The notes under the pieces were generated by a model, which saw only the letters and a list, made by a program, of their open reading frames with translations, did not search any database and was not told the DNA's origin. A stretch of 62,025 nt of DNA, filler included. It is 5 parts of 5 records of this genome, joined end to end, with 100 filler letters (N's around TTAATTAATTAA, not from the genome) between each part and the next. Parts side by side here need not be neighbours in the genome. Positions count along the whole stretch, not along the records: positions 1 to 19,512 come from SRR31156797_2052; 4 more parts are not named here. One strand, given 5' to 3'. The position numbers were made by a program, and so were the translations under genes. Positions 2,554-19,270 of the stretch are shown piece after piece (the first letter of the stretch is position 1; each line of letters opens with the position of its first letter).

Positions 2554-2656
2554 TTTTACTCCCCCGCCGTAAATATTGCGGTTGATTAAGCCCGAGGTCT
2601 TAACTCTTTGGTTTCAGATTCTCTTGTCCGGTTTTTATCTGCCCACCGGGAACTAT

Positions 2657-2672
2657 TGCATTCAGAATGCCA
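2657..2672 (-). promoter_or_regulatory. sigma54-type -24/-12 promoter for the Clp ATPase gene
   Basis: Minus strand reads TGGCATTCTGAATGCA: GG-N10-GC, close to TGGCAC-N5-TTGCA, about 100 bp upstream of the start codon. Confidence 0.7.
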
Positions 2673-2833
2673 TCGCTTATTTACTCAAAAAAAATGGATG
2701 AATATCCGTTACTTATAAAACCGTATTGAATTGTTGAGATTCCATTCTAAATTGGTTGACATTTATTCTCAAACAGGATTAGTAAAATGAATAGATCTCT
2801 ATAATTTTTTAATTCAGGTTTGGAGACGATGCC

Positions 2834-4558
2834 ATGGAACTGATCTGTATCAAATTTTTTTTAGATTATGATAATACAAAAAAGGGACAGCTGAGCGCCC
2901 GGTTTCTTACGATTCCCTGTGATGATCCGGACAGCTTATCCAAACGGCTTAAATCGAAACAGCCTGCTGTATTTGCCGTTCCCCGGGGTGAAATACACCA
3001 ATTGACCGTGCATGAAGATATTATCAGTTTCCAGGGTGAAAAAAACAGGGATAAAGAATTGTTCAGAATCCTGATCAGTACAGATTTAGTCCCGCTGCTC
3101 ATCGGTGTATATAAATATAAAGGTAAAATTGAAAGCAGCGTTCGGGATTTTTTAAGACGATGGGACAGGGAGAGACCTGAAAAGGCCAATAAAAGGAATG
3201 CATTTATTTTAGGGGCGGATGAAACCCTGCTCATGAAAATCCTGAAGGAGCACCGTGAAGATCATCCCCTTGTTCCAGATCTCATGGTTAATCTTGAGAA
3301 AATTATACTCAATCTGAACACACGGCAAAAAGCGGCGGGCAAAAGCGTACTAAGTGCCCCTCCCAACGCGGAGGAATTAAAAAACATCCTGCTGGGCAAC
3401 TCTGAAGCCATGGATTTTGTAAGGGAACGGATCATCCAGGCCGGGCGCCATGACAGAAATATTCTGATGCTCGGAGAGACCGGCACCGGTAAAAGCATGG
3501 CGGCAAGACTGATTCACAATTACAGCACCCGCAGGAATAATCCCTTTGTCACCTTTGCCTGCGGATCGGTTACAGGCAGTCTTTTTGAGTCGGAATTGTA
3601 CGGATATGTTGAGGACTCGCACAGCCGTGCGACCTCGGACCGCAAAGGACTCTGGCAGCAGGCCGGGGAAGGCACCCTGTTTTTTGACGAGATCGGGGAT
3701 CTTCCCCTGTATCAGCAGGCCAAGATATTGGTTGCCATCGGCAGGAAAGTCATCCGCCCAGTGGGCAGCGACGAGGAGATCCCTGTCAGGGCCAGGCTTA
3801 TATTTGCCACCAACAAAGATCTGTTCGCCATGGTTAAAAAAGGTAGATTCAGGGAAGATCTCTACTGGCGGATCCGCGAGCTCCCCATTGTCATGCCCCC
3901 CTTGAGAAAACAAAAGGACGCCATCAGAGATATTGCCGTAAAATTATGGGGGAAAATCGCCAGAGATCCTGAAGACAAGCCCCTTTCCGGAGAGATACTC
4001 GATCAGCTGGAACGGGTAAGCTGGACAGGAAATGTCCGTGCGCTCAAAGCCGTATTGAACGGACTTTATTATTGGGATATCGACAAGCACTGCAAAGATC
4101 TCAATGACCTGAATATCGTTCTCGGCCAGCACCAGTTAAAAACAGATGAAACCTGCAGGGTCTGTACACCGGATCTTTCCGGCAGCACAGTGGATATGAA
4201 TCAGATCAGGTGCCTGAGACATTTAAAAAACACGGAAGAATGGCTGCTGGCCTGCCAGAAAATTTTCGAACCCTGTATGACAGATGCATCAGATGCCAAA
4301 CGCCTTGAAAATATGGACACCATCGTATTCAGACACCGTCTGAAAGAAGCCGGCAGATTGATTGCTCAACCCTTTTTATTCGGTAATAAGGAATCCTTCA
4401 TGGAAATTCATAACCTGCAGGGGAAATTGGTATATTTTAACGAAATGATTACCGGTAAATTATGGACCCAGGCCCATGAATACATGGTCACCGAACTTTC
4501 CGAACATCTGGAACGCGCCCGAAATCTGATTTTTGAGGCTGTCCGAAAAAAACAATAG
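2834..4558 (+). CDS. sigma54-activator-family (NtrC-type) AAA+ protein with non-canonical GAFTGA loop
   Basis: GETGTGKS, FESELYG, GTLFFDEIG, ATNKDL, RFREDLYWRI, WTGNVRAL. The GAFTGA position reads DSHSRA. No recognisable Fis-type HTH at the C-terminus. Confidence 0.85.
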   Translation: MELICIKFFLDYDNTKKGQLSARFLTIPCDDPDSLSKRLKSKQPAVFAVPRGEIHQLTVHEDIISFQGEKNRDKELFRILISTDLVPLLIGVYKYKGKIESSVRDFLRRWDRERPEKANKRNAFILGADETLLMKILKEHREDHPLVPDLMVNLEKIILNLNTRQKAAGKSVLSAPPNAEELKNILLGNSEAMDFVRERIIQAGRHDRNILMLGETGTGKSMAARLIHNYSTRRNNPFVTFACGSVTGSLFESELYGYVEDSHSRATSDRKGLWQQAGEGTLFFDEIGDLPLYQQAKILVAIGRKVIRPVGSDEEIPVRARLIFATNKDLFAMVKKGRFREDLYWRIRELPIVMPPLRKQKDAIRDIAVKLWGKIARDPEDKPLSGEILDQLERVSWTGNVRALKAVLNGLYYWDIDKHCKDLNDLNIVLGQHQLKTDETCRVCTPDLSGSTVDMNQIRCLRHLKNTEEWLLACQKIFEPCMTDASDAKRLENMDTIVFRHRLKEAGRLIAQPFLFGNKESFMEIHNLQGKLVYFNEMITGKLWTQAHEYMVTELSEHLERARNLIFEAVRKKQ

Positions 4559-4781
4559 CTGTATATTTATGAATTCGGAAGATTATGGCACCACCGAATT
4601 CACTTGGGGCGTTATGCATATATGAGAATCCCGTCTTTTCCAGGCTGCGTTTAATCTATCGCGGCCTGCTCAACAGCAAAATAAAATCTATGTGATTTTC
4701 TTCCGGACTTCCCATCTTCTAAATCTCAACATCTCAACAACCGACACATAACCATCTGAAACAAAACGATCAATAACCAGG

Positions 4782-4797
4782 CGGTATCTGCCTTGCT
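4782..4797 (+). promoter_or_regulatory. candidate sigma54 promoter for the EamA gene
   Basis: CGGTATCTGCCTTGCT: GG (4783-4784)-N10-GC (4795-4796) with TTGCT at -12. Confidence 0.55.
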
Positions 4798-4827
4798 CCT
4801 ATTGTTTCCAAAAGTCAGCAAGTATTT

Positions 4828-5847
4828 ATGCAACCCTTAATACTGTATGAAAAGGTGGCCAACATGTCAAAATCATTTTGGAATCAGGTCGGTCTGGTTA
4901 TCATTGCATTTATATGGGGGATCACATTCGTGGTTGTGAAAAATAATATTCAGGACATCCAGCCCTTTTGTTTTAATTTTCTGCGATTTTCTTTATCCGC
5001 TTTGCTGGTATTTTCGTTTATGCTGATCATCCGGAAACAGGAACTGACCGGGATAGGGGGTGTGGCGCTCCGGGACGGCTGCTGTCTCGGGTTCTGCCTT
5101 TTCTGCGGATTCGCCCTGTTGACATTGGGCCTGGTTCATACCAAAGCTTCTAATGCAGGCTTTATCACCGGTATGAATGTGGCCATGGTTCCATTTTTCT
5201 CAGCGGTGATGAAAAGACAAAAACCCGATTTTTTCACCCTCATGGGTGTCATCTTGGTGTCGGTTGGCCTCTACTTTTTAACCGTCAAAAGCTCTGTTTC
5301 CTTAAATAAAGGGGACCTGCTAATTTTCCTGGGCGCCGTTGCCTTTGCTTTCCATGTAATCTTTACAGAAACCTGTACACAGCGCACATCAACCGGGATT
5401 CTGGTCATGGTCCAGTTTTGTTTTGTTGGTGTGCTCAGCGGCATATGTGCGTATTACATGGAAGATCTTAGCATAATTGCTGATGCGAAAATCATACTTT
5501 CAACAAAAATGCTCACCGCACTGGCCATTGTGGTTCTCCTGGCCACATGCCTCGCTTTGCTGGTACAGACCCGTGCCCAGAAAAAGGTGGCCCCGGCCAA
5601 AGTCGCTCTGATATTTTCCCTGGAACCTGTATTTGCTGCATTGTGCGGATATTTCTGGGCTGGGGAAACCCTGGGGCCTACATCCGTGACAGGATGCGTT
5701 TTTATTTTTGCCGGAATGACCACTGCAGATTTGCCTAAACATCTTAAACACTTGGTAAAATACAAATACAATTTAAAGGAATACCTTGTCAAAAACAGAC
5801 GAAAAATTAGGACTTTCATACTTTTTTGGCAAAAAGCCTCTCCCTGA
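4828..5847 (+). CDS. EamA/DMT family transporter
   Basis: About 10 hydrophobic segments; IWGITFVVVK, NFLRF, SNAGFITG, GDLL, LEPVFA. The real start may be the second Met at 4864. Confidence 0.9.
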   Translation: MQPLILYEKVANMSKSFWNQVGLVIIAFIWGITFVVVKNNIQDIQPFCFNFLRFSLSALLVFSFMLIIRKQELTGIGGVALRDGCCLGFCLFCGFALLTLGLVHTKASNAGFITGMNVAMVPFFSAVMKRQKPDFFTLMGVILVSVGLYFLTVKSSVSLNKGDLLIFLGAVAFAFHVIFTETCTQRTSTGILVMVQFCFVGVLSGICAYYMEDLSIIADAKIILSTKMLTALAIVVLLATCLALLVQTRAQKKVAPAKVALIFSLEPVFAALCGYFWAGETLGPTSVTGCVFIFAGMTTADLPKHLKHLVKYKYNLKEYLVKNRRKIRTFILFWQKASP

Positions 5848-6006
5848 TCATCATATTTTAATGTTTATGAAGTAAGTATATGAATTTCACCTAGATTGGC
5901 CTTATTTTCAGGCGTTTTCAGGCTTGCATTTTGAAATTTCATTCGGTATGGTGGTTCGGGTGAAACTCAATGCTGTTTTATGAATCTCTCGTTTTAGGTT
6001 TTTGAA

Positions 6007-9000
6007 ATGACACAATTGTCCGATCCCCCTCCCCATGTGTGGAAAACAATCCGGGTTTTCATATCATCTACATTCCGCGATTTTCATGCGGAAAGAGATT
6101 ATCTGATTAAATATGTTTTTCCCGAACTGCGTGACTGGTGTATGCCGTATAAATTACACCTGGTGGATATCGATCTACGCTGGGGCGTCACCCAGGCAGA
6201 GGCCGAATCCGGGAAGGTGATTGACATCTGTCTTGAACAGATCGACGGCAGCCGGCCGTTTTTCGTCTGCATGCTGGGAAACCGATACGGCTGGGTTCCG
6301 GAAGATTCCGAGGTTCCGGACCACACATTTGATAGGTATAATCAGTTGCACCGGTTTTCAAAGTACTCTGTCACCCACCTGGAGATCGAACACGCGGTTT
6401 TCGGATCACTGGCGGCATCTGATAGGGTCGATGCCATTCCCCACTCTTTTTTCTATTTCAGAGATCCCCAAAGCCTGCCTGAGAAAAGCGGTCTACCCGA
6501 TAGTTTATCTTCTGACCAAAAAAAAGAGTATGAAGCGGTCTTTTTCGAATCCAATGAATCCGGCCGTAACAAGCTGGCTGTTTTAAAAGCGGATATCATT
6601 AAGCATTTCAAACGCATCGGACTAAAAAAGGAAAACCCCGATGAAGTATCTGAAAGGGTTTTCAACTACGCGCCCCGCTTTGACCCCATGCTTTCAAATC
6701 CGGAGGACCACAGGCTCATGGGCCGGATCCCCCCCCAAAGCCTTAAAGCCTTTGGCAACCGGTTAAAAAGTGACCTTAAAAATGCCATCCAACTTGAATT
6801 TCATGAGCGGATCGCATATCTGAGCGGCGCCCCCCGGCACCCCCTGGAGGAGCACGAACGTGAATTCAACGATCTGTTCGTGGAAAACCGGACGCGCTCC
6901 TTTACCGGACGCCAGGACATCCTCGCCGACCTTATGGATTACATATCCTGCCAGGAACCCCAAGCGATAATGCTCACGGGACCATCGGGATGCGGAAAAT
7001 CCGCCATACTGGCACGATTCTACCGGGACATCTCGCCTCCCCCTGAAGCGCCGACCGGCACCCGGAACCGGGAGGATACCGGGACGGCATCACCGCTGGT
7101 ATTTGCCCATTTTATCGGATCAAGCCCCAATGTGGTCACCCTTTACGATCTTTTAAGGGTGCTGTGCCGGGAAATGCTGTTCAGACGCCTGGATGCCCAG
7201 AAGGAAGATCTCATCAGTGGTATCCGGGCAGAAATTGCACAACTTTCAGAGGCCGGGAACGAATTATCCCATGAGGAAATCGCCCAAAAAAAGGAAAATC
7301 TTAAAAAATCCATTGATGCCCTGAATAACGACTATGCCGTTCCAGCGGAACTGCCGGACCTGATCATCAAACTCGATTTTTTCCTCGGTAAAATGGATCT
7401 GCCCTCCGTTTTTATTCTTGACGGCATTAACCAGCTCATCGATTTTGATAGACATGCCATAACCGATTGGCTGCCGCGTCTTCTGCCGGACAAGGTAAAA
7501 ATCATTCTCAGCCGGATGACAGAAGACAACAGCCGTGAATCCACGATTCCTGGTCTTCGGTATTTGCCCGTCTCAGAACTGACCATTTCTGAAAGCAAAC
7601 AGATCATCCGGGAACTTCCGTCTGTGTTTGCAAAATCCCTTGAGCCGGACCAAATGGATCTGCTGTTTCAAAAAAAAAGTTCAGGAAACCCGTTGTATTT
7701 AAAAATCGCGTTGGAAGAACTCCGGGTTTTCGGATCCCATGAGGGGATTTCCAACAAAATCAAATCTCTTCCCGAGGATATCTGCCAAATTTTCATTGAA
7801 TTTCTGGCCCGCCTTGAACACGATTTCGGCCGCAGCCTCACCCGGAAACTCTTCTCCTATCTTGATTGTTCCCGGCAGGGATTAACCGAAGCAGAACTTA
7901 TTGAACTGCTGAAGGATGAAGACCGGCAGAATGTGGCCAAACTCATTCTGAGGACCGCCCGGGACTACCTCATGTATCAGGGCGAGTTCATCAGGTTTTT
8001 CCACCAGACATTTTCCCGGGCCGTCCGGGAAAAATACTTTGCGGAGCCGTTATCGCGCAGAAAATGCCACGGTGAACTGGCGTGTTATTTTAAAACAAGC
8101 CCCCTGTATCTCAACCATCAGGGAAAACAGCGGGTGAATCAGCACAAGCTGGGCGAACAGATATGGCAGCAGATCAACGCAGGGCAGATAGAAGACGTTG
8201 AATCCTCTTTTCTCGATTATCCGCTGATTAACCTGATGCAACAGCATTCAGGAATAGACGCCCTGTTAACTTTGTTTGAAATGATCCCGGGACAAAAATC
8301 CCATACCATAACCGCCCTTGAAGAATGTCTTAAACAGGCGCGGTATGCCCTGCATGATGACAACACCCAACTCGGGGCCCAATTATATGCGAGGTTGAAA
8401 GGATTTCAAACACCGGATGCCGAGGCGTTGGCCGGGCACTTCAGCCAGGCCCAGACCGAGCCGTGGCTGAAACTTCTCGGGCCCCGGTTTATCACCCCAT
8501 TAAATTACCGGATGTTAAGACACCACACAGCAACCATTAGCAGCATCCATTCATTCCCCGGCGGCAACAGATTTCTTTCCACATGTTATAACGGCAAAAT
8601 CGTACTCTGGGATCTAAAAGGCGGCCGGACACTTCAGGAGACGAGGGTTCATTCGGGCCGGTGGATTATGGCGGCAGGCCTGTCGGAAACAGGAGACAGG
8701 TTTGTCTCTGCCGATCGGAACGGCCGGATGGCGATATGGGATGCTGCGGAAAAACTGGCCCCGCTTCAGGTATGGGAAAAAGAGACGGATACCAGTGAGA
8801 CCTGCGGTATATTTTCAGCCGCCCTTTCATCGGATACCGGAACGGTGTTGTATGGAAAACTGGACGGCAGTATTGTCTGCTGCGATGACAGGGGGGACGA
8901 GAAGAGCCGGGTCAATTTCCACTCGTTTTTTGCGGGCAACCCGGATGTTGATGAAAAACTTCCTGCCCGAAAACCGGTATCCGATCTGAATATCAACACC

Positions 9001-10638
9001 AAACAAGGGACGGTGATCGCGTATTCGGAGTATACGCAAACAGCCGTCCTATTGTCACTGGACACCTTTGCTCTCATTGAAAAGATTGTGATCAAAGGCC
9101 GCGGCAGAACCGCATTTGCCGCGGACCGCAGACACACCGTCTTTGCATATGGTTTTACCGACGGTGTTATCAGATATAAAACCATGGGGGCGTTGCCCCA
9201 TGCCCCGGCCCGTGAAATTAAAAATGCCCATTCCGGTAGAATCACCGTGCTTGAATTTTACAACTCCCCGGAAGACCCTCATGACATACAGCTTTGCAGC
9301 GCAGGGACCGACGGCCTGATCAAATTGTGGAAACTTTCCACCGGGGCCTGCCTGGGATCTTCGGAGCCGTTTGAAGCCCGCGTGACCTGTTTAACCCAGG
9401 TGCCTGGCACCCGGAAAGTCATCGCCGGTACCCTGTCCGGGGATATCATTCTGTGTGAAGCGTTCAAATACCGGGATACATACCAGGATTCTCCCCATGA
9501 GACCTATGGGATCGACGGGGTGGCGCTGTCACAAAATGGGAAAAAAGCGGTTTCCTTTGATGAGGCCGGCGGCATTGTGTCATGGCGTGTCCAAGGAGCT
9601 CCGGAGATAGAGGAGAGTATCTTTGTGGAAGACCGTCCCCGGTGCTGCGATATGTCCGTGAACGGTGCAAAAATAGTTTTTGGTACGGAAAGCGGCATCC
9701 TTGCCCTTTGGGATCCCCAACATGCTCAGGGGAATGAGGATGCGGTTTCAGATACCCCGATAACTTGCTGCCGGTTCTGTGATGATGATCAGACGGTTAT
9801 TATTGGAAATGAATCCGGTCGTATCTCACTGCATGATAGCGGCGAAATGAATCCCCAATGGTCTGAATACTTACACCACTCTCCTGTTACCAATTGTTTT
9901 ATGAATCAGGGGGCCATGCTTAAAATGCTGGTGTCAACGAGCTGGGAGAAATATTCCATTGCCATCGTTGCCAAAGTTCCCCATGAGTTATGGAAATTCA
10001 ACGCCCGGCCGCTGTCAATCTCCTCCCAGGGGGACCTCTGGATCCATAAAACCCGGACTGCGCTCAATGTGGTTAACACGGTCAGCGGCCAGACCGTCCA
10101 AAGTGTTAAAGGATCGTTCACAGATATTGCAGGGGCCTGCTTCTCTCCCTGTGGTGACATGGTTGCGGCATGGTCCAATGATACGGTTTACATCTGGGAG
10201 ATCTGCACCCCGGATTTATTGGGGACTCTGACACTAGTCAATCCCATCCGTTCATTGGGGTTTAACGGGAACCGGGTCATTCTCGGACACACCGGGGGAA
10301 TTGTTTCCTTTATCTCACTGGAAAATCCTATTGTGTTTGGAAAAAGGGGCCGTCACTATATCCAGACTATCAGCTTGGAATTTGCATCGCCTCCGGATGA
10401 AGCATTAAAGATCTTTAATAAGACCAAAGTCGTCCCCTTGAATGCGATTTCCCAAAAACGCGACAATGAAACCAATGATGAGGTGATGGTTCGCCTCTGG
10501 TCCGAAGCTGTGTATAGCGCAGCGGACTCATTTAGCCGCCCCCTGGCGGAAAAATGGGCCTCCCTGAAATGGCCGGATAATTATCTGGTGCTAAGATCAA
10601 CCCGGCTGTCATTTAATGCCTTCTATTTATTTATGTAA
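6007..10638 (+). CDS. DUF4062 + NACHT/STAND NTPase + WD40 repeat protein (NLR-like, TEP1/NWD-type architecture)
   Basis: N-terminal IRVFISSTFRDFHAER..DLRWGV..LGNRYGWVP..SVTHLEI (DUF4062). Walker A GPSGCGKS, Walker B FILDGINQL, GNPLYL. Many WD-type repeats (GKIVLWD, SAGTDGLIKLWK, GILALWD). Confidence 0.88.
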   Translation: MTQLSDPPPHVWKTIRVFISSTFRDFHAERDYLIKYVFPELRDWCMPYKLHLVDIDLRWGVTQAEAESGKVIDICLEQIDGSRPFFVCMLGNRYGWVPEDSEVPDHTFDRYNQLHRFSKYSVTHLEIEHAVFGSLAASDRVDAIPHSFFYFRDPQSLPEKSGLPDSLSSDQKKEYEAVFFESNESGRNKLAVLKADIIKHFKRIGLKKENPDEVSERVFNYAPRFDPMLSNPEDHRLMGRIPPQSLKAFGNRLKSDLKNAIQLEFHERIAYLSGAPRHPLEEHEREFNDLFVENRTRSFTGRQDILADLMDYISCQEPQAIMLTGPSGCGKSAILARFYRDISPPPEAPTGTRNREDTGTASPLVFAHFIGSSPNVVTLYDLLRVLCREMLFRRLDAQKEDLISGIRAEIAQLSEAGNELSHEEIAQKKENLKKSIDALNNDYAVPAELPDLIIKLDFFLGKMDLPSVFILDGINQLIDFDRHAITDWLPRLLPDKVKIILSRMTEDNSRESTIPGLRYLPVSELTISESKQIIRELPSVFAKSLEPDQMDLLFQKKSSGNPLYLKIALEELRVFGSHEGISNKIKSLPEDICQIFIEFLARLEHDFGRSLTRKLFSYLDCSRQGLTEAELIELLKDEDRQNVAKLILRTARDYLMYQGEFIRFFHQTFSRAVREKYFAEPLSRRKCHGELACYFKTSPLYLNHQGKQRVNQHKLGEQIWQQINAGQIEDVESSFLDYPLINLMQQHSGIDALLTLFEMIPGQKSHTITALEECLKQARYALHDDNTQLGAQLYARLKGFQTPDAEALAGHFSQAQTEPWLKLLGPRFITPLNYRMLRHHTATISSIHSFPGGNRFLSTCYNGKIVLWDLKGGRTLQETRVHSGRWIMAAGLSETGDRFVSADRNGRMAIWDAAEKLAPLQVWEKETDTSETCGIFSAALSSDTGTVLYGKLDGSIVCCDDRGDEKSRVNFHSFFAGNPDVDEKLPARKPVSDLNINTKQGTVIAYSEYTQTAVLLSLDTFALIEKIVIKGRGRTAFAADRRHTVFAYGFTDGVIRYKTMGALPHAPAREIKNAHSGRITVLEFYNSPEDPHDIQLCSAGTDGLIKLWKLSTGACLGSSEPFEARVTCLTQVPGTRKVIAGTLSGDIILCEAFKYRDTYQDSPHETYGIDGVALSQNGKKAVSFDEAGGIVSWRVQGAPEIEESIFVEDRPRCCDMSVNGAKIVFGTESGILALWDPQHAQGNEDAVSDTPITCCRFCDDDQTVIIGNESGRISLHDSGEMNPQWSEYLHHSPVTNCFMNQGAMLKMLVSTSWEKYSIAIVAKVPHELWKFNARPLSISSQGDLWIHKTRTALNVVNTVSGQTVQSVKGSFTDIAGACFSPCGDMVAAWSNDTVYIWEICTPDLLGTLTLVNPIRSLGFNGNRVILGHTGGIVSFISLENPIVFGKRGRHYIQTISLEFASPPDEALKIFNKTKVVPLNAISQKRDNETNDEVMVRLWSEAVYSAADSFSRPLAEKWASLKWPDNYLVLRSTRLSFNAFYLFM

Positions 10639-10677
10639 CGTTATATAGAATTTCGGCTAAAAAAGGAGACTTCACCA

Positions 10678-11607
10678 ATGTTCTGGCGGAAAAAAAGAAA
10701 AAAAACACCATCGAGTTCAACTAAAATCGTTCCGGGCAGGCATCTGTCTGAAAATCCAGGACGGGGATTTGACACGGCCCTGCCGGCCTCCGATCCGGCC
10801 CATGCCCAGGGAATTGCCAGGGAAGCCATATGCAGTGAATGCGGATGCAGCGGGGGCCATGAGGTCATTGGCGGCTCGACCTGGGTGAGAACGCTTTTGG
10901 ATCACACCCGGGAGGGATTCCGGATTCAGTTGATGGAATGCCGCCAGTGCAAGGCATTGAACCCCATTGTATTCAAAGCCTACGAAGACGGCAGCATTGA
11001 TAAACAGATAAAATCAGTTGAAGATGGGATGAAAAACCAGGATGAAAAGACCCGGGCCGGTCTCCTGGGAAGCCCGGGCGGATTTCCGGTCATGCATGTG
11101 GCCCGGGGGGGGGAACCCGGTGAATACATGCACAAGGTCATCAATCCCGAGAACTATACCACCCGGTCCAAAAAATTTCACATGTCCTATAAAATCTGTA
11201 CGTGTCCGGAATGTGACGCCATCGGAACCGTTGGATTGTTTCAGATGAAAAAATTCGGTGGCATCGGAACCATGGTTTGCGGGAATTGCGGCAATGTGGT
11301 CCGCTCTGTTGAGCACGGCAGTCTGGTTGAAAACCTGAAACCTGAAAACACGGATCACTTTATGACACTGGCGGAGAAAGAGACGGACTGGATCAAAGAA
11401 TCCCCTTTGTTTGAATCGTCAAATTTAGTCTGCAGATATTGTGACAAGGAAAAATTCATTGTGAAATACTTGAGAAGCGGTAAGGGTTCAATTGTCTGCG
11501 CCGGGTGTGGTAACGTTGCATTCCTTCTGCACGAAGGCGAAGAACTCCAGGTCTACAATCTGCCCGAAGATATTCTGGACCCCTGGTTTGAATCCGCCGG
11601 CGGATAA
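10678..11607 (+). CDS. Cys-rich hypothetical protein with three putative zinc ribbons
   Basis: Six CxxC motifs in three pairs (CSEC/CRQC, CPEC/CGNC, CRYC/CAGC); RBS AAGGAG. Confidence 0.75.
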   Translation: MFWRKKRKKTPSSSTKIVPGRHLSENPGRGFDTALPASDPAHAQGIAREAICSECGCSGGHEVIGGSTWVRTLLDHTREGFRIQLMECRQCKALNPIVFKAYEDGSIDKQIKSVEDGMKNQDEKTRAGLLGSPGGFPVMHVARGGEPGEYMHKVINPENYTTRSKKFHMSYKICTCPECDAIGTVGLFQMKKFGGIGTMVCGNCGNVVRSVEHGSLVENLKPENTDHFMTLAEKETDWIKESPLFESSNLVCRYCDKEKFIVKYLRSGKGSIVCAGCGNVAFLLHEGEELQVYNLPEDILDPWFESAGG

Positions 11608-11658
11608 TACAAAGATGTCATTGAAAAAACCAAATAGCTGAACAGGATAGGAGAGTCC

Positions 11659-14340
11659 ATGGGTAATAAAACAATGCTTATCACAGGTGATGTATCCTGC
11701 GATGTCAATATTTACAAAGGAGACAAAACCTTTTCCAAAGAATCAGGGTTAGGCACCGCCATTAAAAAGGAAGCCGGCGGCGCTCATCTTCTTTTCCGGC
11801 TGATTGAAGCGATAAAAAAACAGGAGACATCATCTTCTGACTATACACCGCATTTCGGGTTTAAAAAAGAGTTGACAAGGCGGCTGGCTTCGTTTCCCGG
11901 AAATTTAACCAGTTATGCCACCTGGCAGCCCTTTGGCAAGCGTCAGGGGTGGAAGGTATTTGATCTCCTGGGGTTTGGCAATGAGCCCTCCCCCCCTTCC
12001 CAAAAGAAAAAAGCGACTCTTTTTTTTGAAACCCACCTGGATACGGACCTGAAAAACCCGGAGATCCTTGTGGTGGATGACGGGGCTGGCCGGTTTCGGA
12101 ATCAACCCTACCTGTGGGAACATCTGTTCCAGAATGAATCTCGGTTCGAGCATATTATCCTCAAAATGGCATCACCCGTGGCCAAAGGAAAGCTGTTCAA
12201 CCGTTTGCTTAAACTTCAAACCGCACCCCCTTCCCTTTTGATCATCACATCCCTGGATGAAATCCGCCGGGAAGACGTCCTGATTTCAAAAGGGGTCTCC
12301 TGGGAGCAGACCGCCCTTGATCTGGTGTATGAACTCAACAGCAGTGCAAGGCTGCGGCACCTGCTTTTTGCAAAACACCTGATCATTACCATGGGGTCCG
12401 AGGGGGCGCTGTACATGACCCTGGAAAAGGGACGCATGGTGAAAGCACGCCTGGTGTTCGATCCTGCGGTCCAGGAAGGGGAATGGGAAATAAGCCGTGG
12501 AATGGCCGGCGGTGTGATCGGGCTGATGTCCTGTTTTACAGCCGGTGTGGTTGCCGAATTCATGTCGGGTTCCGATAATTTTGATTTTGCCGTCACCCGC
12601 GGGCTATCCGCCCAGCGCCGGTACAAGCTCACCGGACACGGGTTTGACTCCCGTGAATTCCCGTTTAAAACCATTGCCGCCGATATTGTAAATCCCAAAA
12701 CCGATTGGTTTGCATCGGCCGTGGTTCCCATTCCGAAAAATACAGCCGAAAAAACTCCCGATATCACCGGGCTGAAGTTTAAAAATCTACCCTGGACCAT
12801 TTTAGAGGGCAACTACCTGCCGGAAAAAGAGAAGCAACCGCTGTATGATGTGGGGTTCCGACTGGCCGTCATGGGAGAAAATGAGATGGCAAACGTGCCC
12901 CATCTCAAGGTCAACTATTTCATGACCTACGACCGCAGTGAAATAGAATCCCTGCGCAACCTGAACAACCTGATCAGCGACTATCTTGCAAACGATAAAG
13001 GGAAAAAACCGCTGTCCCTGGCAGTTTTTGGCGCACCCGGCGCGGGAAAATCCTTTGCCGTCAACCAGATAGCCGAATCCCGGGGCATGGCCTTTGTTGA
13101 ATTCAACCTCTCCCAGTTCGAAGATGTCAATGAGCTGACCGGGGCATTTCACCAGGTTCGGGATGTTGTGCTGACCGGGAAAACACCGATCATTTTCTGG
13201 GATGAGTTTGACTCCCAGAATTTTCGCTGGCTTCAATATCTTCTGGCGCCTATGCAGGACGGAAAATTCCAGGAAGGCCAGATCACCCACCCCATTGGCA
13301 AGTGTATTTTTATTTTCGCCGGAGGAACCAGCTATACCTTCCAGACATTCGGCACGCCTGCCCCGGATTATCCAGATGCCAAAGACAAGGAATATGATCT
13401 AAAAAAACAGGTGTATGAAAATCAGCTCAAGCGGTTCCAAGAGTTTAAACTGAAAAAAGGGCCCGATTTCAAGAGCCGGCTTACTGGATATCTCAATGTC
13501 CTGGGCCCCAACCAGCTGGAAAGACTGGATAGATTCGGTAATGTAATCCTGGATGAAAAAGAAAAAACACCGGTAAAAGACAACAATGACATTTTCTTCC
13601 CCGTACGGCGGGCCTTGTTCATCCGGGCGATCTTCGGCAAAAAAAGCAATGAGGTACTGGAAGGCGACACCGGCCTGATCTACGCACTATTGCGGGTGGA
13701 TAAATTCAAACACGGGTCCCGCTCCTTGGAAAAAATCCTGAGTCAATTAAAAATTAAAAACAACGGGCAGATCAAACGCTCCGGACTACCGGCTTTTAAT
13801 GTACTCTCCATGCTGGTGGATTATGATGAGTTTATCGGTCTTATGGATGAAAAAGACGATTTTGAGAACCAAGCCCACACCATTGCCCCCCACATTCATG
13901 CCAACTGGATGAAAATAGGTGATACAGATGGATGGAAGATGGAGTATCATAAACCCTATCCAATGCTGCCCAGCCACTTGAAAGGAGAGAATATTGCAGC
14001 GGCATCCCGAATCCGGGAAATCTTAAACCTTGCCGGACTCAAAGCTGTCCGAAAGGAGGAGGCTGATTTTTATGAGACTGTTGACTTTGAAAAAATCCTC
14101 CAAAACAAGGCCACATTAACAATGATGGCCAAGGAGGAACACGCTGGGTGGATAGCGTATAAAGAATCGCAGCAATGGGAACCGTCAAAAATCCGGAATG
14201 ACGATCAAAAAATGCATAATTGCATGGTCGAATGGGAAAAACTGTCTATAAATGAAAAAAACAAAGACAAAGACGCCGTTAGAAATTATCCTGATGGTTT
14301 AAAACGGGCAGGCTTTATCATTGTCCGGGCTGATGAATAA
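11659..14340 (+). CDS. PfkB-like N-terminal domain + AAA ATPase + C-terminal RyR (ryanodine receptor repeat) domain protein
   Basis: LITGDVSCD..EAGGA start (ribokinase-like); GAPGAGKS and IIFWDEFD; C-terminal IHANW..PYPMLP..EN and AKEEHAGW..W..MHNCMVEWEKLSINEKNKD typical of RyR repeats; RBS AGGAG. Confidence 0.8.
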   Translation: MGNKTMLITGDVSCDVNIYKGDKTFSKESGLGTAIKKEAGGAHLLFRLIEAIKKQETSSSDYTPHFGFKKELTRRLASFPGNLTSYATWQPFGKRQGWKVFDLLGFGNEPSPPSQKKKATLFFETHLDTDLKNPEILVVDDGAGRFRNQPYLWEHLFQNESRFEHIILKMASPVAKGKLFNRLLKLQTAPPSLLIITSLDEIRREDVLISKGVSWEQTALDLVYELNSSARLRHLLFAKHLIITMGSEGALYMTLEKGRMVKARLVFDPAVQEGEWEISRGMAGGVIGLMSCFTAGVVAEFMSGSDNFDFAVTRGLSAQRRYKLTGHGFDSREFPFKTIAADIVNPKTDWFASAVVPIPKNTAEKTPDITGLKFKNLPWTILEGNYLPEKEKQPLYDVGFRLAVMGENEMANVPHLKVNYFMTYDRSEIESLRNLNNLISDYLANDKGKKPLSLAVFGAPGAGKSFAVNQIAESRGMAFVEFNLSQFEDVNELTGAFHQVRDVVLTGKTPIIFWDEFDSQNFRWLQYLLAPMQDGKFQEGQITHPIGKCIFIFAGGTSYTFQTFGTPAPDYPDAKDKEYDLKKQVYENQLKRFQEFKLKKGPDFKSRLTGYLNVLGPNQLERLDRFGNVILDEKEKTPVKDNNDIFFPVRRALFIRAIFGKKSNEVLEGDTGLIYALLRVDKFKHGSRSLEKILSQLKIKNNGQIKRSGLPAFNVLSMLVDYDEFIGLMDEKDDFENQAHTIAPHIHANWMKIGDTDGWKMEYHKPYPMLPSHLKGENIAAASRIREILNLAGLKAVRKEEADFYETVDFEKILQNKATLTMMAKEEHAGWIAYKESQQWEPSKIRNDDQKMHNCMVEWEKLSINEKNKDKDAVRNYPDGLKRAGFIIVRADE

Positions 14341-14383
14341 AAAATATTGCCAAACTAGTCACCACTTGCCAATTTATGAAAAA

Positions 14384-14422
14384 AATGTGATTGGTTCTGA
14401 AATCATCAGAATCAATCACATT
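14384..14422. terminator. 17-bp stem hairpin after the RyR-domain gene (terminator or operator)
   Basis: AATGTGATTGGTTCTGA-aatca-TCAGAATCAATCACATT, one G:T pair. Confidence 0.55.
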
Positions 14423-14694
14423 ATCAGTAGAATCGGCCGGTGCAAGGGGAAATAATTATCCAACACATAATTCCAATATCATTATTCTTGTCAAAATAAT
14501 CCCGAACCTGCAAATAACAGGATACAAAAATTCTTTATTGAGATTTTGAACAAGTAAAACCTCAACAAGTCACAAACCCGATCAACACCGCTAGAAGAAT
14601 AAAAACAATAGAATCTGTTTTTCCCTGCAATTTAAACGAATTGCCGCTGATCCCAGGCGTTTTCTCAGCTTTCCAGGCATGCCTCCATTTCCGT

Positions 14695-14710
14695 TGGTTT
14701 TCAGATTGCT
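14695..14710 (+). promoter_or_regulatory. candidate sigma54 promoter for the Hsp90-like pair
   Basis: TGGTTTTCAGATTGCT: GG (14696-14697)-N10-GC (14708-14709), about 65 bp before the RBS-supported ATG at 14774. Confidence 0.62.
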
Positions 14711-14773
14711 TTGTATCAAGCTGCCATGAGAACAAAGGACTCAAAACGACGAATTCAAGCTTTAGGAGGAAGG

Positions 14774-16684
14774 ATGACAGATCAGAAAATAAGTGTTGAG
14801 GAAATCCGGAAGGATATCACAACCATTGCAGAAAAAGGAATTGGGGTGGACCGCAGGCAGCTTTTAAAAGACATGTGCACCCAGTTTACAGACTATTGGG
14901 AATGGCTCAGGGAATACTGCGTCAATGCATCGGATGCCCTGGCCGAGCACTGTATTGTCACCATTGAAGAACAGGAAGAAAAATTTTGCATTATTTTCGA
15001 AGATGATGGCCATGGCATGCCCAAGGATATGGTGCTTGTTTTTATGACCCTGTTCAAATCCGTCAAATTCGGTGAGCCCAAAAAAACAGTGGGCTGCCAC
15101 GGGGTAGGAAAACTCAGTGTATTTGCCAGCGATTATCTGACCGGCTTTGCCATGACCACATCCACCGGGAAAGAGTGCTGGCAGATGAGAACCGGCTCCT
15201 TTCTTAATGATATTCCCATAACCATCAACCAGATAGAACCCGTCCCCCGACAGGGAACCCGGTTTGAAATCGAGTATGAGAAAATGCTTTCCCTTGAACA
15301 GCTTGTATCAAAAGCCAGACAGATTCTTCAAAAGTACTGCCAGTATCTGTCCATGCAGATTCTTCTCAAGTCCAGAAGTGTTGATCCCGGCGGAGATTCC
15401 AAGGAATTGATCAAGTCAAGCTGGCATTACGGCCCCGAAAAAATGGCCCAAACATACCAGGGAGAAGATTACTGGGGAAAATACGAAGTCATTATCGGGA
15501 TCAATAAGGGGCGCCAGACTGTGTATCAAAACCGGGTGCTGGTATCTGATAATTATAATCTGCTGACCATTGACGGGACCAAAGGGCTTCATCTGCCGGG
15601 CCTGGATATCCGGGTAAACAGTTCGGATTTCACGCTCAATTTCGGGCGCAATAAGTTAACCAATGAAGTATTTTTACTCTCTATCGCATCAAAAATTCGT
15701 AAAACCTTTATCCCCGATTATTTCAACCGGCTGGCAGAACTATACACCTCCGGTGCCGGCAAAGAAATCGGCATCGGATACCCACAGATAGAATCCCTGG
15801 CCTGCGGAATCCTGAGGTACAAAATTCCATGGATCAGATCGGCACTGGAATTGCCCATTTTCAGGCTTAAAAACAGGCCCCATAGCTCTTCTTTTTCCCA
15901 GATAGAGGATCAAGTGAAACGTACCGGTAAACTCTACCTTGAGAATCCGGATTCAACCGGTATTGATTTTTCGGTATACGACGGCCCGGTATTATCCTTG
16001 AGCCAGCCCCCGGACGGTCTGAATTTTTTGAAAAACAAATTCTCCGGCTATCTCATCAATCTGGGATTGAATGATGTGGTTATGGAAATACCCGAGACAG
16101 CCGGAAAAGCACTGGGACGAAAGGAACTGGCCTTTGAAAAAAAACTGGGATTCCAACCCGGCAGTTTAAACGGGCGGATTCCGCCGGCAAAATCTAAAAA
16201 AACAGGCCAAAGGGGCAGCATCTCAAAGGCGGTTGAATTCTACACGGCACTGCAAAAGGAAGGATTTCTTGACAAAGTCTGTGAAGAATCCAGGGAGGCA
16301 CAAACCGACCTTGAGCATCTGAAATGGAAAGTCAATTATCTGGTGGAACGGGATGGTAAGACACCCAATAAAAATCATAAATTCCTGGTAAACGGCAATA
16401 CCATTGTTCTGAACCTGAACCATACTGAAATTCAGCAGCTTTTAACATTGTCCGAAAATTCAGGAAATCTGGCCGGCCACTGGGCCATGGCCATCTGTCT
16501 ATGTGAAGGAAATTGTATTCTGAAACACCTGACCCCGGAGGCACGTGAAGATTTGCTGATCATTGATGCCATGTCACGCTGCGGCAGGGACGAAAATTTT
16601 GAAACAAACGACACGCCCCCCAAGCCCTATGAAACCAATCCGGATTTCGACCTTGAACTCGATCACATAGGCCGCTGGCTTTAG
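14774..16684 (+). CDS. Hsp90/HtpG-like GHKL ATPase, paralog 1
   Basis: REYCVNASDA, EDDGHGM, GCHGVGKLS, GTRF; middle-domain LNFGRN; C-terminal LNLNHTEI. Start moved from the track's 14711 to ATG 14774, which follows AGGAGG. Confidence 0.8.
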   Translation: MTDQKISVEEIRKDITTIAEKGIGVDRRQLLKDMCTQFTDYWEWLREYCVNASDALAEHCIVTIEEQEEKFCIIFEDDGHGMPKDMVLVFMTLFKSVKFGEPKKTVGCHGVGKLSVFASDYLTGFAMTTSTGKECWQMRTGSFLNDIPITINQIEPVPRQGTRFEIEYEKMLSLEQLVSKARQILQKYCQYLSMQILLKSRSVDPGGDSKELIKSSWHYGPEKMAQTYQGEDYWGKYEVIIGINKGRQTVYQNRVLVSDNYNLLTIDGTKGLHLPGLDIRVNSSDFTLNFGRNKLTNEVFLLSIASKIRKTFIPDYFNRLAELYTSGAGKEIGIGYPQIESLACGILRYKIPWIRSALELPIFRLKNRPHSSSFSQIEDQVKRTGKLYLENPDSTGIDFSVYDGPVLSLSQPPDGLNFLKNKFSGYLINLGLNDVVMEIPETAGKALGRKELAFEKKLGFQPGSLNGRIPPAKSKKTGQRGSISKAVEFYTALQKEGFLDKVCEESREAQTDLEHLKWKVNYLVERDGKTPNKNHKFLVNGNTIVLNLNHTEIQQLLTLSENSGNLAGHWAMAICLCEGNCILKHLTPEAREDLLIIDAMSRCGRDENFETNDTPPKPYETNPDFDLELDHIGRWL

Positions 16685-16716
16685 CCTCCCTCATATTTCA
16701 ATGGAAAGGAAAAAAA

Positions 16717-18654
16717 ATGAAAAATAATACAACAATAATCGACACGATTACCTTGAAACGCGGAATGAAAATCGACCGGAATGAGGCATGGCGTAAACTG
16801 ACCCACAGGCAGCACGGCGGGAATCCGGCCAGGGGCATGGGAGAGCTTGCCCAGAACGGCTTTGACGGCTATGATTCCGATGTGGACTGGCTGGATCGCA
16901 AACTGGAGATCAACTCCGGCGCCGGGTCCATCAGCATCGTTGACTATGGTGCAGGAATGAGCCGGGAAAAACTAAAGCTTCTGGTGACACTGGGGGGAAC
17001 GGACAAGACCAACGATAAGACAAAACTCGGCCAATTCGGAATCGGCTTTTGCAGCATGTTTCATCCCGCGCTGGGGACACAGAACGTGGTCGTCCAGACC
17101 AGGTGCGAAGGCCATGCTGTCGAGCTTATGTTTACGGTAATTGAGCAGGGAAAAATCCCGAAAATAGAAGCCCGCCTCCTGGAAAAAAAACTGCCATTTG
17201 CCACCCGGATCGCAGTGACCTTTGACAACTTCGGTTCCCCCGATGACTGCCTGGAATATGCCCGGAAATGGTTAAAAAGCCTTCCATGCAATGTGAGAAT
17301 CAACGGAAAGGTATACCCGTCCATCTGGGAGGAGGCACGGCAGCAGGGACTTCCTGTCTTTGAATCCGGGCAATGCATGGGATTTGTCAAGCCGAGCAGC
17401 TGGCGCTGCGGTCAGGTCGCACTACTTAGAAGATTTGAAAAGGTGATGGATTTATCCATAGAAGCCTTGATGACCGGCGGCCACAGCATTAAATACGACT
17501 TGCGGGACTGGGCTCGTAAGGAAACACCATTTGTGGACGATGTCACCATCACCATCAACTGCAACGACCTGAGCGTGCCCATCAGCAGGGACGGATTTTA
17601 CCTGGACGCCGCCTACACCCGGATGACACGTGTTGTCAACGAGCAATTGCTTCTCCGACTTGCGGAGAAGCTCGAGTTTCAGCAAGATCATGCCGTTGTC
17701 AGGGCCAATCATTATGTGCTGAAAAATAAAATTGGAAACTATGTAAACCGGAAATTAAAAAAGGCGGATACCAGCGACATTGACCCCGTTATTAAAACTC
17801 TGGCAAAGGCAAAAATATACCCGGTCAATGGAAAAGCGGAAAAATATTCTCTTCTGGATATCGCGATAAAAAGGACCGATGACCTGCCTGTTTTTTACTC
17901 TCCGAAGCAGACGAACCTTAGGTGGCTTGGCGGGGCGTTCAAACATGATTTTATTGTCCTGCCGCCCTGGCAGGGTACCGGAAGCATTTCGGCACCTGGT
18001 TTTTATGATACGTTTTTCAGACGGATTTTCTCCGATGTGGTAAACCTTGATGAAGTCGAATATGACCACGATAAAATGGCGGATCTGGTGAAGCGGGATA
18101 TCATCTGCAAAGAATCTTTATCTCCCAACCTCCATTTGACAAAAATCAGAAAACTAAATGAGAAGGAACTGGGCTGTATCCGTAAAATTGACCGGGTACT
18201 CTCCCATGATGCCGTTAAAAAAGCCATAGCCAAAAATCTCAACCTTCAGGTCTCTGAAATCAAGGCTGCTTTTTTTGAACTTGAACAATCCGGGGGCGTA
18301 ATTGCCACGGGATTTCTGGATGAAGACGGCACACCCCTTGAAGAAGAGTATTACACCAATTTTGCCCAGCAGGATGACACCCGAACCACTGAAACGGCAA
18401 AACCCATCCTGCTGGGACTGCAGAAGGACAACCCCCTGATTGACTCCCTGATCGGTACCGGAGACCCGGATATGCCGTATTACCTGCTTATGTACCTTGT
18501 TCAGGAGCTTTCGATGTGCCAAAAATTGCTTGTTCCTTATTCCAGGTATTTCCATGTGGTTAAAACTCGGCTTGCCAAAGATCTTCGCCAGGCACTGATT
18601 GATCAGTTTCTATCCGAAATGACGGAGGATAGAAAAATGGAAACCGTCAAATAG
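16717..18654 (+). CDS. Hsp90/HtpG-like GHKL ATPase, paralog 2
   Basis: ELAQNGFD, VDYGAGM, GQFGIGFCS; middle-domain VPISRDG; C-terminal LQKDNPLI. Confidence 0.82.
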   Translation: MKNNTTIIDTITLKRGMKIDRNEAWRKLTHRQHGGNPARGMGELAQNGFDGYDSDVDWLDRKLEINSGAGSISIVDYGAGMSREKLKLLVTLGGTDKTNDKTKLGQFGIGFCSMFHPALGTQNVVVQTRCEGHAVELMFTVIEQGKIPKIEARLLEKKLPFATRIAVTFDNFGSPDDCLEYARKWLKSLPCNVRINGKVYPSIWEEARQQGLPVFESGQCMGFVKPSSWRCGQVALLRRFEKVMDLSIEALMTGGHSIKYDLRDWARKETPFVDDVTITINCNDLSVPISRDGFYLDAAYTRMTRVVNEQLLLRLAEKLEFQQDHAVVRANHYVLKNKIGNYVNRKLKKADTSDIDPVIKTLAKAKIYPVNGKAEKYSLLDIAIKRTDDLPVFYSPKQTNLRWLGGAFKHDFIVLPPWQGTGSISAPGFYDTFFRRIFSDVVNLDEVEYDHDKMADLVKRDIICKESLSPNLHLTKIRKLNEKELGCIRKIDRVLSHDAVKKAIAKNLNLQVSEIKAAFFELEQSGGVIATGFLDEDGTPLEEEYYTNFAQQDDTRTTETAKPILLGLQKDNPLIDSLIGTGDPDMPYYLLMYLVQELSMCQKLLVPYSRYFHVVKTRLAKDLRQALIDQFLSEMTEDRKMETVK

Positions 18655-18658
18655 AATA

Positions 18659-19270
18659 ATGCCCCACCTTTTACCGCCATATAAGCCATGGATCATTCCC
18701 GCGGTCTGCAGTATGCTCTATATCAGGTGTATGATCCTGATAAGCCGGCACCTGAAGCTGGCTGTCATTAACAACTGCCTTGACGTGGACTACCTTACCC
18801 ATTGGAAACTTGGAAGCCCGTTTGAAACCCTGGATAATTTGGACGCCCTGGTATTCTGGGGCGCCCATATCATATACTGGGGACTGGAAATCATCTTATT
18901 TGCATGGTGCTTCAATACAACCAAGGCAAAAAACAATTGGCGGGAATCTGTATCCAATGTATGTATATTCACGGCCACCGGAATGATGATTTTCTATATG
19001 GTTCTTATCTTCTGCATGTTTTCGCTTGCCGTCCATGAAGGTTATCACCCCACAGCGGATACCATATACAGGACGAATCACGGGCCGTGGCATTCTGTTT
19101 CCCACCTGGGGTTCATGGTGTTTTATGAATTACTCATCATGGCCGGCGGAACAATCATTGCCCTGGGCGGTCTGCTTATCCGGTTCACCCTTCAGGGCAT
19201 GGTAATCTCTTTCATGGGTATTGTACTGCTCTGGTTTCATGTGAGCAATCTGCTATGGCTAATTGATTAG
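18659..19270 (+). CDS. hypothetical integral membrane protein (about 5 TM segments)
   Basis: Hydrophobic segments throughout; starts 4 nt after the upstream stop codon. Confidence 0.6.
   Translation: MPHLLPPYKPWIIPAVCSMLYIRCMILISRHLKLAVINNCLDVDYLTHWKLGSPFETLDNLDALVFWGAHIIYWGLEIILFAWCFNTTKAKNNWRESVSNVCIFTATGMMIFYMVLIFCMFSLAVHEGYHPTADTIYRTNHGPWHSVSHLGFMVFYELLIMAGGTIIALGGLLIRFTLQGMVISFMGIVLLWFHVSNLLWLID

Follow-up and report, generated by a model that had tools for sequence, protein, structure and literature searches.

A recurrent gene pair encoding an NLR-like NIR protein and a tandem-RyR AAA+ ATPase may signal through an NAD-derived nucleotide

The window of this study is the whole stretch of DNA that was analysed, 62,025 nt in length, in which five records were joined by 100-N fillers and in which adjoining parts are not necessarily neighbours in the genome. 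Positions 1-19,512 come from SRR31156797_2052, and later positions come from four other records. Here we describe three genes in the first of these records, which encode an NLR-like sensor (gene 1), a zinc-ribbon-like protein (gene 2) and an ATPase with RyR repeats (gene 3, the RyR ATPase). As a first-pass annotation of this DNA had reported, open reading frame (ORF) calling places all three on the + strand, at 6007-10638, 10678-11607 and 11659-14340, with gaps of 39 and 51 nt. A GGAG-type ribosome-binding site lies upstream of gene 2 and of gene 3. The genes and their domains are as follows.

6007..10638, + strand: gene 1, NLR-like sensor of 1543 aa, with a NIR/DUF4062 head, a STAND (NACHT-clade) NTPase and WD40 propellers (Pfam)
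6052..6384, + strand: NIR (DUF4062) domain of gene 1, residues 16-126 (Pfam PF13271; motif S121-x-T123-x-x-E126)
6877..8106, + strand: STAND NTPase with winged helix of gene 1, residues ~291-700 (AAA_16 above cut-off)
8509..9909, + strand: WD40 beta-propeller region of gene 1, residues ~835-1301 (Pfam WD40)
10678..11607, + strand: gene 2, orphan zinc-ribbon-like protein of 309 aa, with three CxxC...CxxC pairs
11659..14340, + strand: gene 3, RyR ATPase of 893 aa, with a ribokinase/PfkB-fold domain, an AAA+ module and tandem RyR repeats
11659..12726, + strand: ribokinase/PfkB-fold domain of gene 3, residues 1-356 (AlphaFold2 model, Foldseek, VIA)
12946..13518, + strand: classic AAA+ module of gene 3, residues ~430-620 (Walker A 458-465, Walker B 513-518)
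13861..14058, + strand: first RyR-like repeat of gene 3, residues ~735-800 (from the helices of the model; no Pfam call)
14107..14337, + strand: second RyR repeat of gene 3, residues 817-893 (Pfam RyR, phmmer)

In gene 1, Pfam detects DUF4062 at residues 16-126 (50.8 bits, cut-off 24.7), AAA_16 (36.3 bits, cut-off 32.6) with Walker A at residues 325-332, and WD40 (47.3 bits, cut-off 27), many other propeller families being sub-threshold. A custom DUF4062 hidden Markov model (HMM) matches gene 1 at 1.1e-47. NACHT (19.8 bits, cut-off 26.7), HTH_NWD1 (23.6 bits, cut-off 27) and nSTAND1 (20.8 bits) remain below their cut-offs. The first-pass annotation had read a DUF4062-NACHT-WD40 layout, of which DUF4062 and WD40 hold in gene 1 itself, whereas NACHT is reached only in relatives about 30% identical to it, at the related loci (numbered with the prefix L) L027 (30.8 bits) and L072 (33.6 bits). 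HTH_NWD1 is passed by more distant relatives (L080, 51.4 bits). The class of gene 1 is settled because its best relatives, in L036, L072 and L027, are close enough, with 31-32% identity across 613-777 residues. Gene 1 fits the plan of NLR-like/Avs-type proteins, which consists of an N-terminal effector, a P-loop STAND NTPase and C-terminal repeats. By its domain content it is thus a predicted DUF4062(NIR)-STAND-WD40 NLR-like protein, a member of an already known kind of protein.

The module had been called uncharacterised, which no longer holds for its DUF4062 half. Passages of three 2026 preprints (10.64898/2026.09.04.749371; 10.64898/2026.05.01.722283; 10.64898/2026.06.25.731849) describe DUF4062, there named NIR, as a TIR-like NADase that yields ADP-ribose and nicotinamide and that acts in Avs, Vulcan, Vesta, Swarozyc and Evangelion defence as well as in human TEP1. 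According to the same passages, the catalytic Glu of the studied NIR proteins is E97, E98, E103 or E108, and NIR heads occur on NLR-like proteins with various repeats (10.64898/2026.09.04.749371). When gene 1 was compared with 27 DUF4062 heads of related loci, the invariant core and the Ser-x-Thr-x-x-Glu motif were found to be kept, and this motif, which includes E126 in gene 1, is common to both subgroups of relatives. By position, E126 would be the catalytic Glu of gene 1, and the NIR domain is presumably active as an NADase.

For gene 3, an AlphaFold2 model was built on an alignment of 28 sequences (predicted local distance difference test, pLDDT, 85.3; predicted template modelling score, pTM, 0.85). 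Residues 1-356 adopt a ribokinase fold in this model: Foldseek gave an E-value of 6e-9, and VIA gave Z 19.2 to pseudouridine kinase 7c1x (288 residues aligned, root-mean-square deviation 4.8) and Z 18.6 to 2awd. All 50 of the 50 rows listed by VIA were kinases of the ribokinase fold, so that the AAA+ and RyR parts were barely probed by it. At the sequence level, Pfam found no PfkB match in gene 3 at E ≤ 0.01, and a profile of the kinase-fold domain (27 sequences) run against PDB sequences gave nothing significant (best E 0.22). The PfkB-like domain that had been annotated in gene 3 therefore stands as a fold but not as membership of the family by sequence. G10, D11, G40 and G41 are invariant and lie at the Gly-Asp and Gly-Gly positions of the ribokinase fold, which we take to be the sugar-binding motifs of ribokinase-type kinases. 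The anion-hole motif with its base is presumably the catalytic one in these kinases; in gene 3 the anion-hole position is seemingly not kept, as judged from a weak alignment (E 0.89).

The other two domain calls on gene 3 were upheld at Pfam cut-offs, AAA with 28.4 bits (PF00004, cut-off 21.2) and RyR with 33.4 bits at residues 817-885 (PF02026, cut-off 27.4). The Walker A and Walker B residues are invariant in the 28 sequences, in keeping with a classic AAA module, and both motifs are likewise intact in the NTPase of gene 1. A Foldseek search of gene 3 against viral models returned generic AAA+ matches only. In the model the C-terminus consists of two helix-helix-strand repeats. Repeat 1 keeps H747 and W750 and has Asn778 where Asp is expected, with H747 and N778 invariant in the 28 sequences. 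Repeat 2 matches 6uhi (8e-11) and 6uag (5.5e-5) as well as 3nrt and RyR3 Repeat12 by phmmer, and it aligns with a Bacteroides RyR-like protein and with RyR3 Repeat12.

Six residues of repeat 2, namely H828, W831, R846, H853, K869 and D870, form the putative pocket; five of them are invariant and H853 is kept in at least 90% of the 28 sequences. Their spacing (+3, +18, +25, +41, +42) is the same as that of the ligand contacts in the phage proteins RyR Tad and RyDEP. As described in passages of PMC13232231, RyDEP contacts its ligand through H75, W78, H100 and D117, of which H75/D117 are the glycosidase pair, and passages of 10.64898/2026.06.04.730250 give H129/W132, K147/H154 and K170/D171 as the ligand-binding residues of RyR Tad. 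The ligands that these proteins bind or cleave are 2'cADPR, 3'cADPR and cyclic ADP-ribose (cADPR) (PMC13232231; 10.64898/2026.06.04.730250). The suggestion of the first-pass annotation that an RyR domain may sense a nucleotide is supported by these phage RyR proteins, which bind or cleave cADPR isomers (same sources).

A word-indexed search found 628 proteins of the gene 3 family at E ≤ 0.001 among 7998 scored candidates, and the 120 family matches listed show 36-59% identity and are mostly full-length. With one genome per species, at least 593 loci were confirmed from 601 matched stretches, in many bacterial phyla and one archaeon. In a metagenome scan the closest relative of gene 3 was 48% identical. 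Searches of 2.9 million viral contigs and of 50,697 phage records yielded no member, and three plasmids carry one; judging from this distribution, the gene 3 family is host-encoded. In one member, P0034, a TIR domain is fused N-terminally and replaces the first ~135 residues of the kinase fold, and the Walker B region is altered.

For the neighbourhood analysis, 80 of the at least 593 confirmed loci were kept as a genome set. Clustering of the proteins encoded around the ATPase gave as recurrent neighbours a STAND/repeat cluster (36 loci), a family of ~600 aa named C2 (23 loci) and several TIR clusters. Cluster members were then scanned with Pfam (C2 16/19, C3 14/14, C4 4/5, C5 6/6, C6 3/3, C7 3/4, short RyR proteins 12/29). 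TIR was present in C3 (12/14), C5 (6/6) and C6 (3/3), and DUF4062-NB-ARC-TPR in all three C7 proteins scanned (3/3). SLATT_1 or DUF4231 was found at E ≤ 1e-4 in 5 of the 16 scanned C2 proteins, 3 of which exceed the cut-off. The 55 STAND-cluster neighbours, scanned as members of at least 300 aa over at most their first 800 residues, comprised 25 with a DUF4062 head, 13 with a TIR head and 17 that were repeat-only, truncated or unassigned; an effector head other than DUF4062 or TIR was found in none of them. Among the remaining nearby ORFs, the nearest 67 of 173 were scanned and included 5 TIR fusions, 1 ADP-ribosylglycohydrolase and 26 proteins with no family, the rest being mostly housekeeping. 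The five additional fusions combine TIR with PEGA, LRR, ankyrin or HATPase_c or carry TIR at the C-terminal end. Restriction, CBASS and CRISPR families were absent from these 67.

With the custom HMMs, DUF4062 was matched in 23, TIR in 41 and C2 in 27 of the 80 genome loci, and in the window only gene 1 was matched. An AAA-core homologue was present in 77 of the 80 loci, 24 of which are shorter than 12 kb. DUF4062 or TIR occurs in 50 of these 77 loci, and in 28 of the 32 where at least 20 kb of sequence is available. TIR genes flank the RyR ATPase in 40/77 loci and C2 genes in 25/77. The density of hits per 100 kb falls from 17.2 at 0-1 kb to 1.0 at 7.5-10 kb for TIR, from 8.6 to 1.0 for DUF4062, and from 12.9 to 0.5 for C2. 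Most hits lie on the strand of the RyR ATPase (TIR 41/58, DUF4062 21/30, C2 19/28).

Because the HMMs had been derived from the genome loci, the count was repeated on 80 metagenome loci, 64 of which have an AAA-core homologue. Among these 64, DUF4062 was found in 23, TIR in 12, C2 in 15, and DUF4062 or TIR in 29; at loci of at least 12 kb, DUF4062 or TIR was found in 14/22. The density again falls between 0-1 and 7.5-10 kb, from 25.6 to 3.1 per 100 kb for DUF4062 (~8-fold), from 10.0 to 1.6 for TIR and from 13.3 to 0 for C2. Thus, the linkage is specific to NAD+-processing heads, tight in distance, replicated and backed by a fusion. Close relatives of gene 1 adjoin the ATPase in either order, upstream in L112 and downstream in L103 and L159.

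Some further observations were made around relatives of gene 3. Other RyR proteins occur near them: of the 12 scanned, seven are TrkA_N-RyR proteins (~590 aa), one is RelA_SpoT-RyR and one is SLOG-RyR. The loci with these other RyR architectures are L007, L032, L042, L065, L067, L071 and L079; L013; and L067:8735-10522. In L057 (152-1090), an ADP-ribosylglycohydrolase gene lies near a RyR ATPase and a TIR-Kelch gene. On plasmid pA of Methylobacterium sp. FF17 (L161, 1314-11691), two insertion sequence genes separate a family member from a SIR2-family protein of 2082 aa, which adds SIR2 to DUF4062 and TIR as a third type of NAD+-consuming head in the vicinity of a gene 3-type ATPase.

Gene 2 stands apart from this linkage. 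It does contain the triple zinc-ribbon pattern that had been noticed in it, with six CxxC motifs at residues 52, 88, 176, 201, 252 and 274 forming three pairs, and its GC1/GC2/GC3 pattern matches that of the neighbouring genes. Pfam, PADLOC and NCBIfam gave no family match; the word-indexed search found no relatives, a full scan of 1.84 billion representatives gave 0 hits at E ≤ 0.001, and an Atlas search returned unnamed clusters only, at 0.88. A CxxC-rich analogue beside the RyR ATPase was found in 0 of 80 related loci, and the single-sequence fold of gene 2 was unusable (pLDDT 34.6). Gene 2 looks like a real gene that was inserted locally in this lineage. The view that the three genes form one unit is not supported, because gene 2 has no relatives and related loci adjoin the two large genes without room for it; in L112, for example, the gap between the gene 1-type and gene 3-type genes is 104 nt. 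What is conserved in the neighbourhood is the pairing of genes 1 and 3, which co-occur widely, and not the trio with the zinc-ribbon gene, which was not seen elsewhere. Since the zinc-ribbon gene has no homologue and appears to be a local insert, the conserved unit is, as far as gene order indicates, the pair rather than the trio, in a putatively laterally acquired island.

From these results we consider, with confidence somewhat above even, that the pair forms a conflict module based on an NAD-derived nucleotide, the product of the sensor being read by the RyR ATPase, be it as effector or as brake. The WD40 propellers of gene 1 would recognise an invader-derived cue, the STAND NTPase would then oligomerise, and the NIR domain would cleave NAD+. 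The tandem RyR pocket of gene 3 would read the ADP-ribose-type product, which the ribose-binding ribokinase-fold domain may also read, and the classic AAA+ module would turn ligand binding into ATP-driven work. In relatives, one ATPase may serve several TIR/NIR sensors, often together with a SLATT-type membrane protein. The zinc-ribbon gene would be a lineage-specific addition to the pair. It is plausible that gene 3 reads the NIR product because the linkage is specific, tight, replicated and fusion-backed and because the ligand class of RyR domains matches. This accords with the earlier proposal that the RyR or the PfkB-like domain may sense a DUF4062 product. The data themselves give the domains, their conserved motifs and the linkage in genomes; we infer from them that the NIR domain of gene 1 is active, that the RyR repeats of gene 3 bind its product, that the AAA+ module acts on a target and that the outcome is anti-phage. 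NADase activity of DUF4062 and binding of cADPR isomers by RyR domains have been shown by others, in relatives only.

Several points weigh against this interpretation. The gene 3 family is known here from sequence, model and genome context alone, and PADLOC 2.0.0 and NCBIfam reported nothing meaningful or above cut-off for genes 1-3. The pocket was mapped by residue spacing and by alignment to RyR domains other than those of RyDEP and RyR Tad. The linkage counts used crude ORF calling (longest ORF or six-frame), the custom DUF4062, TIR and C2 HMMs came from the same 80 loci and were run on six-frame ORFs, and the fall with distance is the sole internal control. DUF4062, TIR and C2 are all absent from 22 of the 77 genome loci, many of them short, and one annotated Clostridium plasmid copy has no DUF4062/TIR/C2-type neighbours. 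In the window, TIR was detected neither by the custom HMM at E ≤ 1e-5 nor by Pfam in the proteins scanned, and no SLATT-like partner was matched by the C2 HMM. Passages of the 2026 NIR preprints describe the studied NIR domains as terminal effectors that deplete NAD+ to linear ADP-ribose. Because characterised NIR domains are terminal effectors, gene 1 could act alone.

That same property of NIR domains leaves room for a regulator. The RyR ATPase might be a brake or reset device that sequesters or hydrolyses basal ADP-ribose-type signals, or that dismantles TIR/NIR-STAND assemblies, and thereby prevents self-killing. AAA+ modules of the classic clade often act by unfolding proteins or by taking them apart. 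Repeat 2 keeps the His/Asp pair (H828/D870) that is catalytic in the glycosidase RyDEP; however, passages of the same paper describe sponge-type RyR proteins of phages that have these residues and yet are not catalytic (PMC13232231), so that the pair by itself does not demonstrate enzymatic activity. In Vesta and Metis, host phosphatases that damp signals are found together with NIR and related effectors, as described in parts of 10.64898/2026.09.04.749371. However, the frequent SLATT-like partner (25/77 and 15/64 loci) and the presence of several sensors per ATPase both fit an output role better. We regard a brake as rather unlikely.

Alternatively, gene 1 may be a self-contained NIR-NLR that kills by depleting NAD+, and the RyR ATPase an independent neighbour within a defence island, part of some other system or of none. 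Single-protein NIR-Avs and NIR-repeat systems protect alone, according to passages of 10.64898/2026.09.04.749371. Defence genes are found clustered in islands, and the island in the window has other candidates such as a Clp-like protein (PDC-M37B, 6.6e-33). Some family members, moreover, have no TIR/NIR neighbour. Independence within a defence island nevertheless fits the linkage specificity poorly, since the association is with TIR/NIR and not with defence genes generally. The linkage also peaks below 1 kb and is mostly on the same strand for both DUF4062 (21/30) and TIR (41/58); it was replicated in the metagenome set, TIR is fused to the ATPase in P0034, and the RyR ligand class matches. 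We consider this explanation quite improbable. A metabolic or housekeeping enzyme with no signalling role, for instance a kinase acting on nucleosides or ADP-ribose in the salvage of degraded NAD+, would agree with the ribokinase fold (Z 19.2, with nucleoside and sugar kinases as best matches) and with the invariant G10, D11, G40 and G41 at the presumed sugar-binding positions, but we consider it very unlikely. Sequence-level PfkB membership is absent (Pfam; PDB profile best E 0.22), and the anion-hole position is seemingly not kinase-like by the weak alignment (E 0.89). Housekeeping genes, moreover, are not typically fused to AAA+ and RyR parts, patchily distributed, placed in an island or flanked by TIR/NIR/SLATT genes.

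A more general idea can be put forward, although only tentatively. Host RyR proteins may be cellular receivers of ADP-ribose signals made by TIR/NIR proteins, in which a diffusible nucleotide gates an AAA+ machine, often with a SLATT pore, and they may constitute a widespread undescribed Thoeris-like class. A paper describing a host RyR partner was not found in an incomplete literature search that left preprint supplements outside, and a term search for such a partner in the available texts of PMC7159879, 10.64898/2026.10.19.760177 and 10.64898/2026.06.25.731849 found nothing. If this idea is true, RyR would be a new receiver domain and the ribokinase-fold/AAA+ protein a new output machine in NAD+-derived immune signalling, and NLR-like NIR/TIR sensors could feed a second component rather than act alone. 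Since the genomes of at least 593 species contain the family, one positive assay would be enough to annotate many genes now labelled only 'RyR domain-containing protein' or 'AAA family ATPase'.

Positions 1-19300 of the window have the look of a foreign island that extends past its left edge. G+C is 0.43-0.52 in positions 1-19000 and 0.25-0.41 across the remaining window, where the genes are of an ordinary chromosomal kind (for example smpB, purM, purN and one for a sigma-70 factor); this fits a laterally acquired island. No tRNA gene or integrase was seen in the window. Three further features of the island deserve mention.

2834..4558, + strand: sigma-54-type AAA+ protein of 574 aa (Pfam Sigma54_activat 1.2e-51); membership in the module uncertain
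14384-14422, no strand assigned: hairpin with a 17-bp stem and a 5-nt loop, which starts 44 nt past the gene 3 stop
14711-16684 and 16717-18654, + strand: two paralogous HATPase_c_3/sacsin-like proteins of 657 and 645 aa (Pfam, NCBIfam); membership uncertain

The long hairpin that had been noted after gene 3 is real, having a folding free energy of -23.1 kcal/mol (z -5.9) that none of 200 shuffles equalled. Its 5' flank is A7 (from 14377), and a T run is absent 3' of it on the + strand. The 14 sites that a terminator scan called in the window, where 13.3 were expected, do not include the hairpin at 14384-14422. A terminator role on the + strand is not supported, because the scan did not flag the hairpin and the T run is absent. 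On the minus strand the same letters give a hairpin with a T run behind it, yet no gene of that strand ends there.

A helix-turn-helix was not detected in the sigma-54-type AAA+ protein, and matches to the sigma-54 promoter consensus in the window (24 against 26.3 expected) show no excess. Homologues of this protein lie near the RyR ATPase in 6/80 genome loci and adjacent to it in L001. For both sacsin-like paralogues, L001 and L039 are the only genome loci (2/80) with homologues next to the RyR ATPase, and neither these nor the sigma-54-type protein have homologues in the metagenome loci (0/80). In L001, from a delta-proteobacterial metagenome-assembled genome (MAG), and in L039, from a Fibrobacteres MAG, the sigma-54-type and sacsin-like homologues occur in other order and orientation. 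These genes may form an extra module in this subclade, or they may be a separate system that travels along.

Other observations in the window concern further genes. The Clp-like protein mentioned above (370-2553, minus strand; 727 aa, two AAA+ modules) is below the ClpA, ClpB and ClpV cut-offs and matches the PADLOC candidate defence model PDC-M37B. At 31306-35917 (+ strand), genes for a HerA-like (DUF87) ATPase, a NurA nuclease and an N6/N4 DNA methylase stand in a row, possibly a separate defence-type trio. At 59075-61371 (+ strand), two genes for GAF-GGDEF diguanylate cyclases, almost the same in length, lie in tandem.

Among known systems, gene 1 most resembles the NIR-bearing Avs/NLR-like proteins, such as PsAvs2 (10.64898/2026.09.04.749371), Swarozyc (10.64898/2026.05.01.722283) and Evangelion (10.64898/2026.06.25.731849). 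As far as these sources describe them in the passages available, they share with gene 1 the three-part plan and probably also the Glu motif. The repeats of gene 1 are WD40 whereas those of PsAvs2 are TPR (10.64898/2026.09.04.749371), and the Avs models of PADLOC do not detect gene 1. Unlike the NIR-bearing systems, gene 1 shows genomic linkage to a RyR ATPase gene: the available Evangelion text (10.64898/2026.06.25.731849) contains neither 'RyR' nor 'ryanodine', and a RyR-type partner is unmentioned in the Results and abstract passages of 10.64898/2026.09.04.749371 and 10.64898/2026.05.01.722283. The domain order NIR-NACHT-WD40 is also that of animal TEP1, NWD1 and NWD2, and relatives of gene 1 pass HTH_NWD1 and show sub-threshold matches to the TEP1 propeller. 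However, gene 1 has no TROVE domain and is itself below the HTH_NWD1 and NACHT cut-offs; the likeness described here is at the level of shared domains.

The proposed arrangement as a whole resembles Thoeris (types I-XI, as described in the main text of 10.64898/2025.12.03.692087), in which one or more NAD+-processing sensors stand beside a partner with a pocket for an ADP-ribose ligand, here a putative one. The use of several TIR sensors per effector in Thoeris resembles the several sensors per ATPase among gene 3 relatives, and the SLATT-type protein often found near them recalls type VII. The differences are that the window has no TIR gene, that the head is a NIR domain on a STAND protein, and that the putative receiver is a RyR/AAA+/ribokinase-fold protein. 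The same study set aside TIRs on Avs-type proteins, and its main text, supplements outside, contains 'RyR' and 'AAA' 0 times and 'ryanodine' once, for animal channels. As to the RyR part, RyDEP (PMC13232231) and RyR Tad (10.64898/2026.06.04.730250) share with gene 3 the family PF02026 and the same set and spacing of pocket residues. These two are, according to passages of the same sources, small homodimeric anti-defence proteins of phages, whereas the two repeats of gene 3 belong to a single host polypeptide that also contains an AAA+ motor and a kinase-fold domain.

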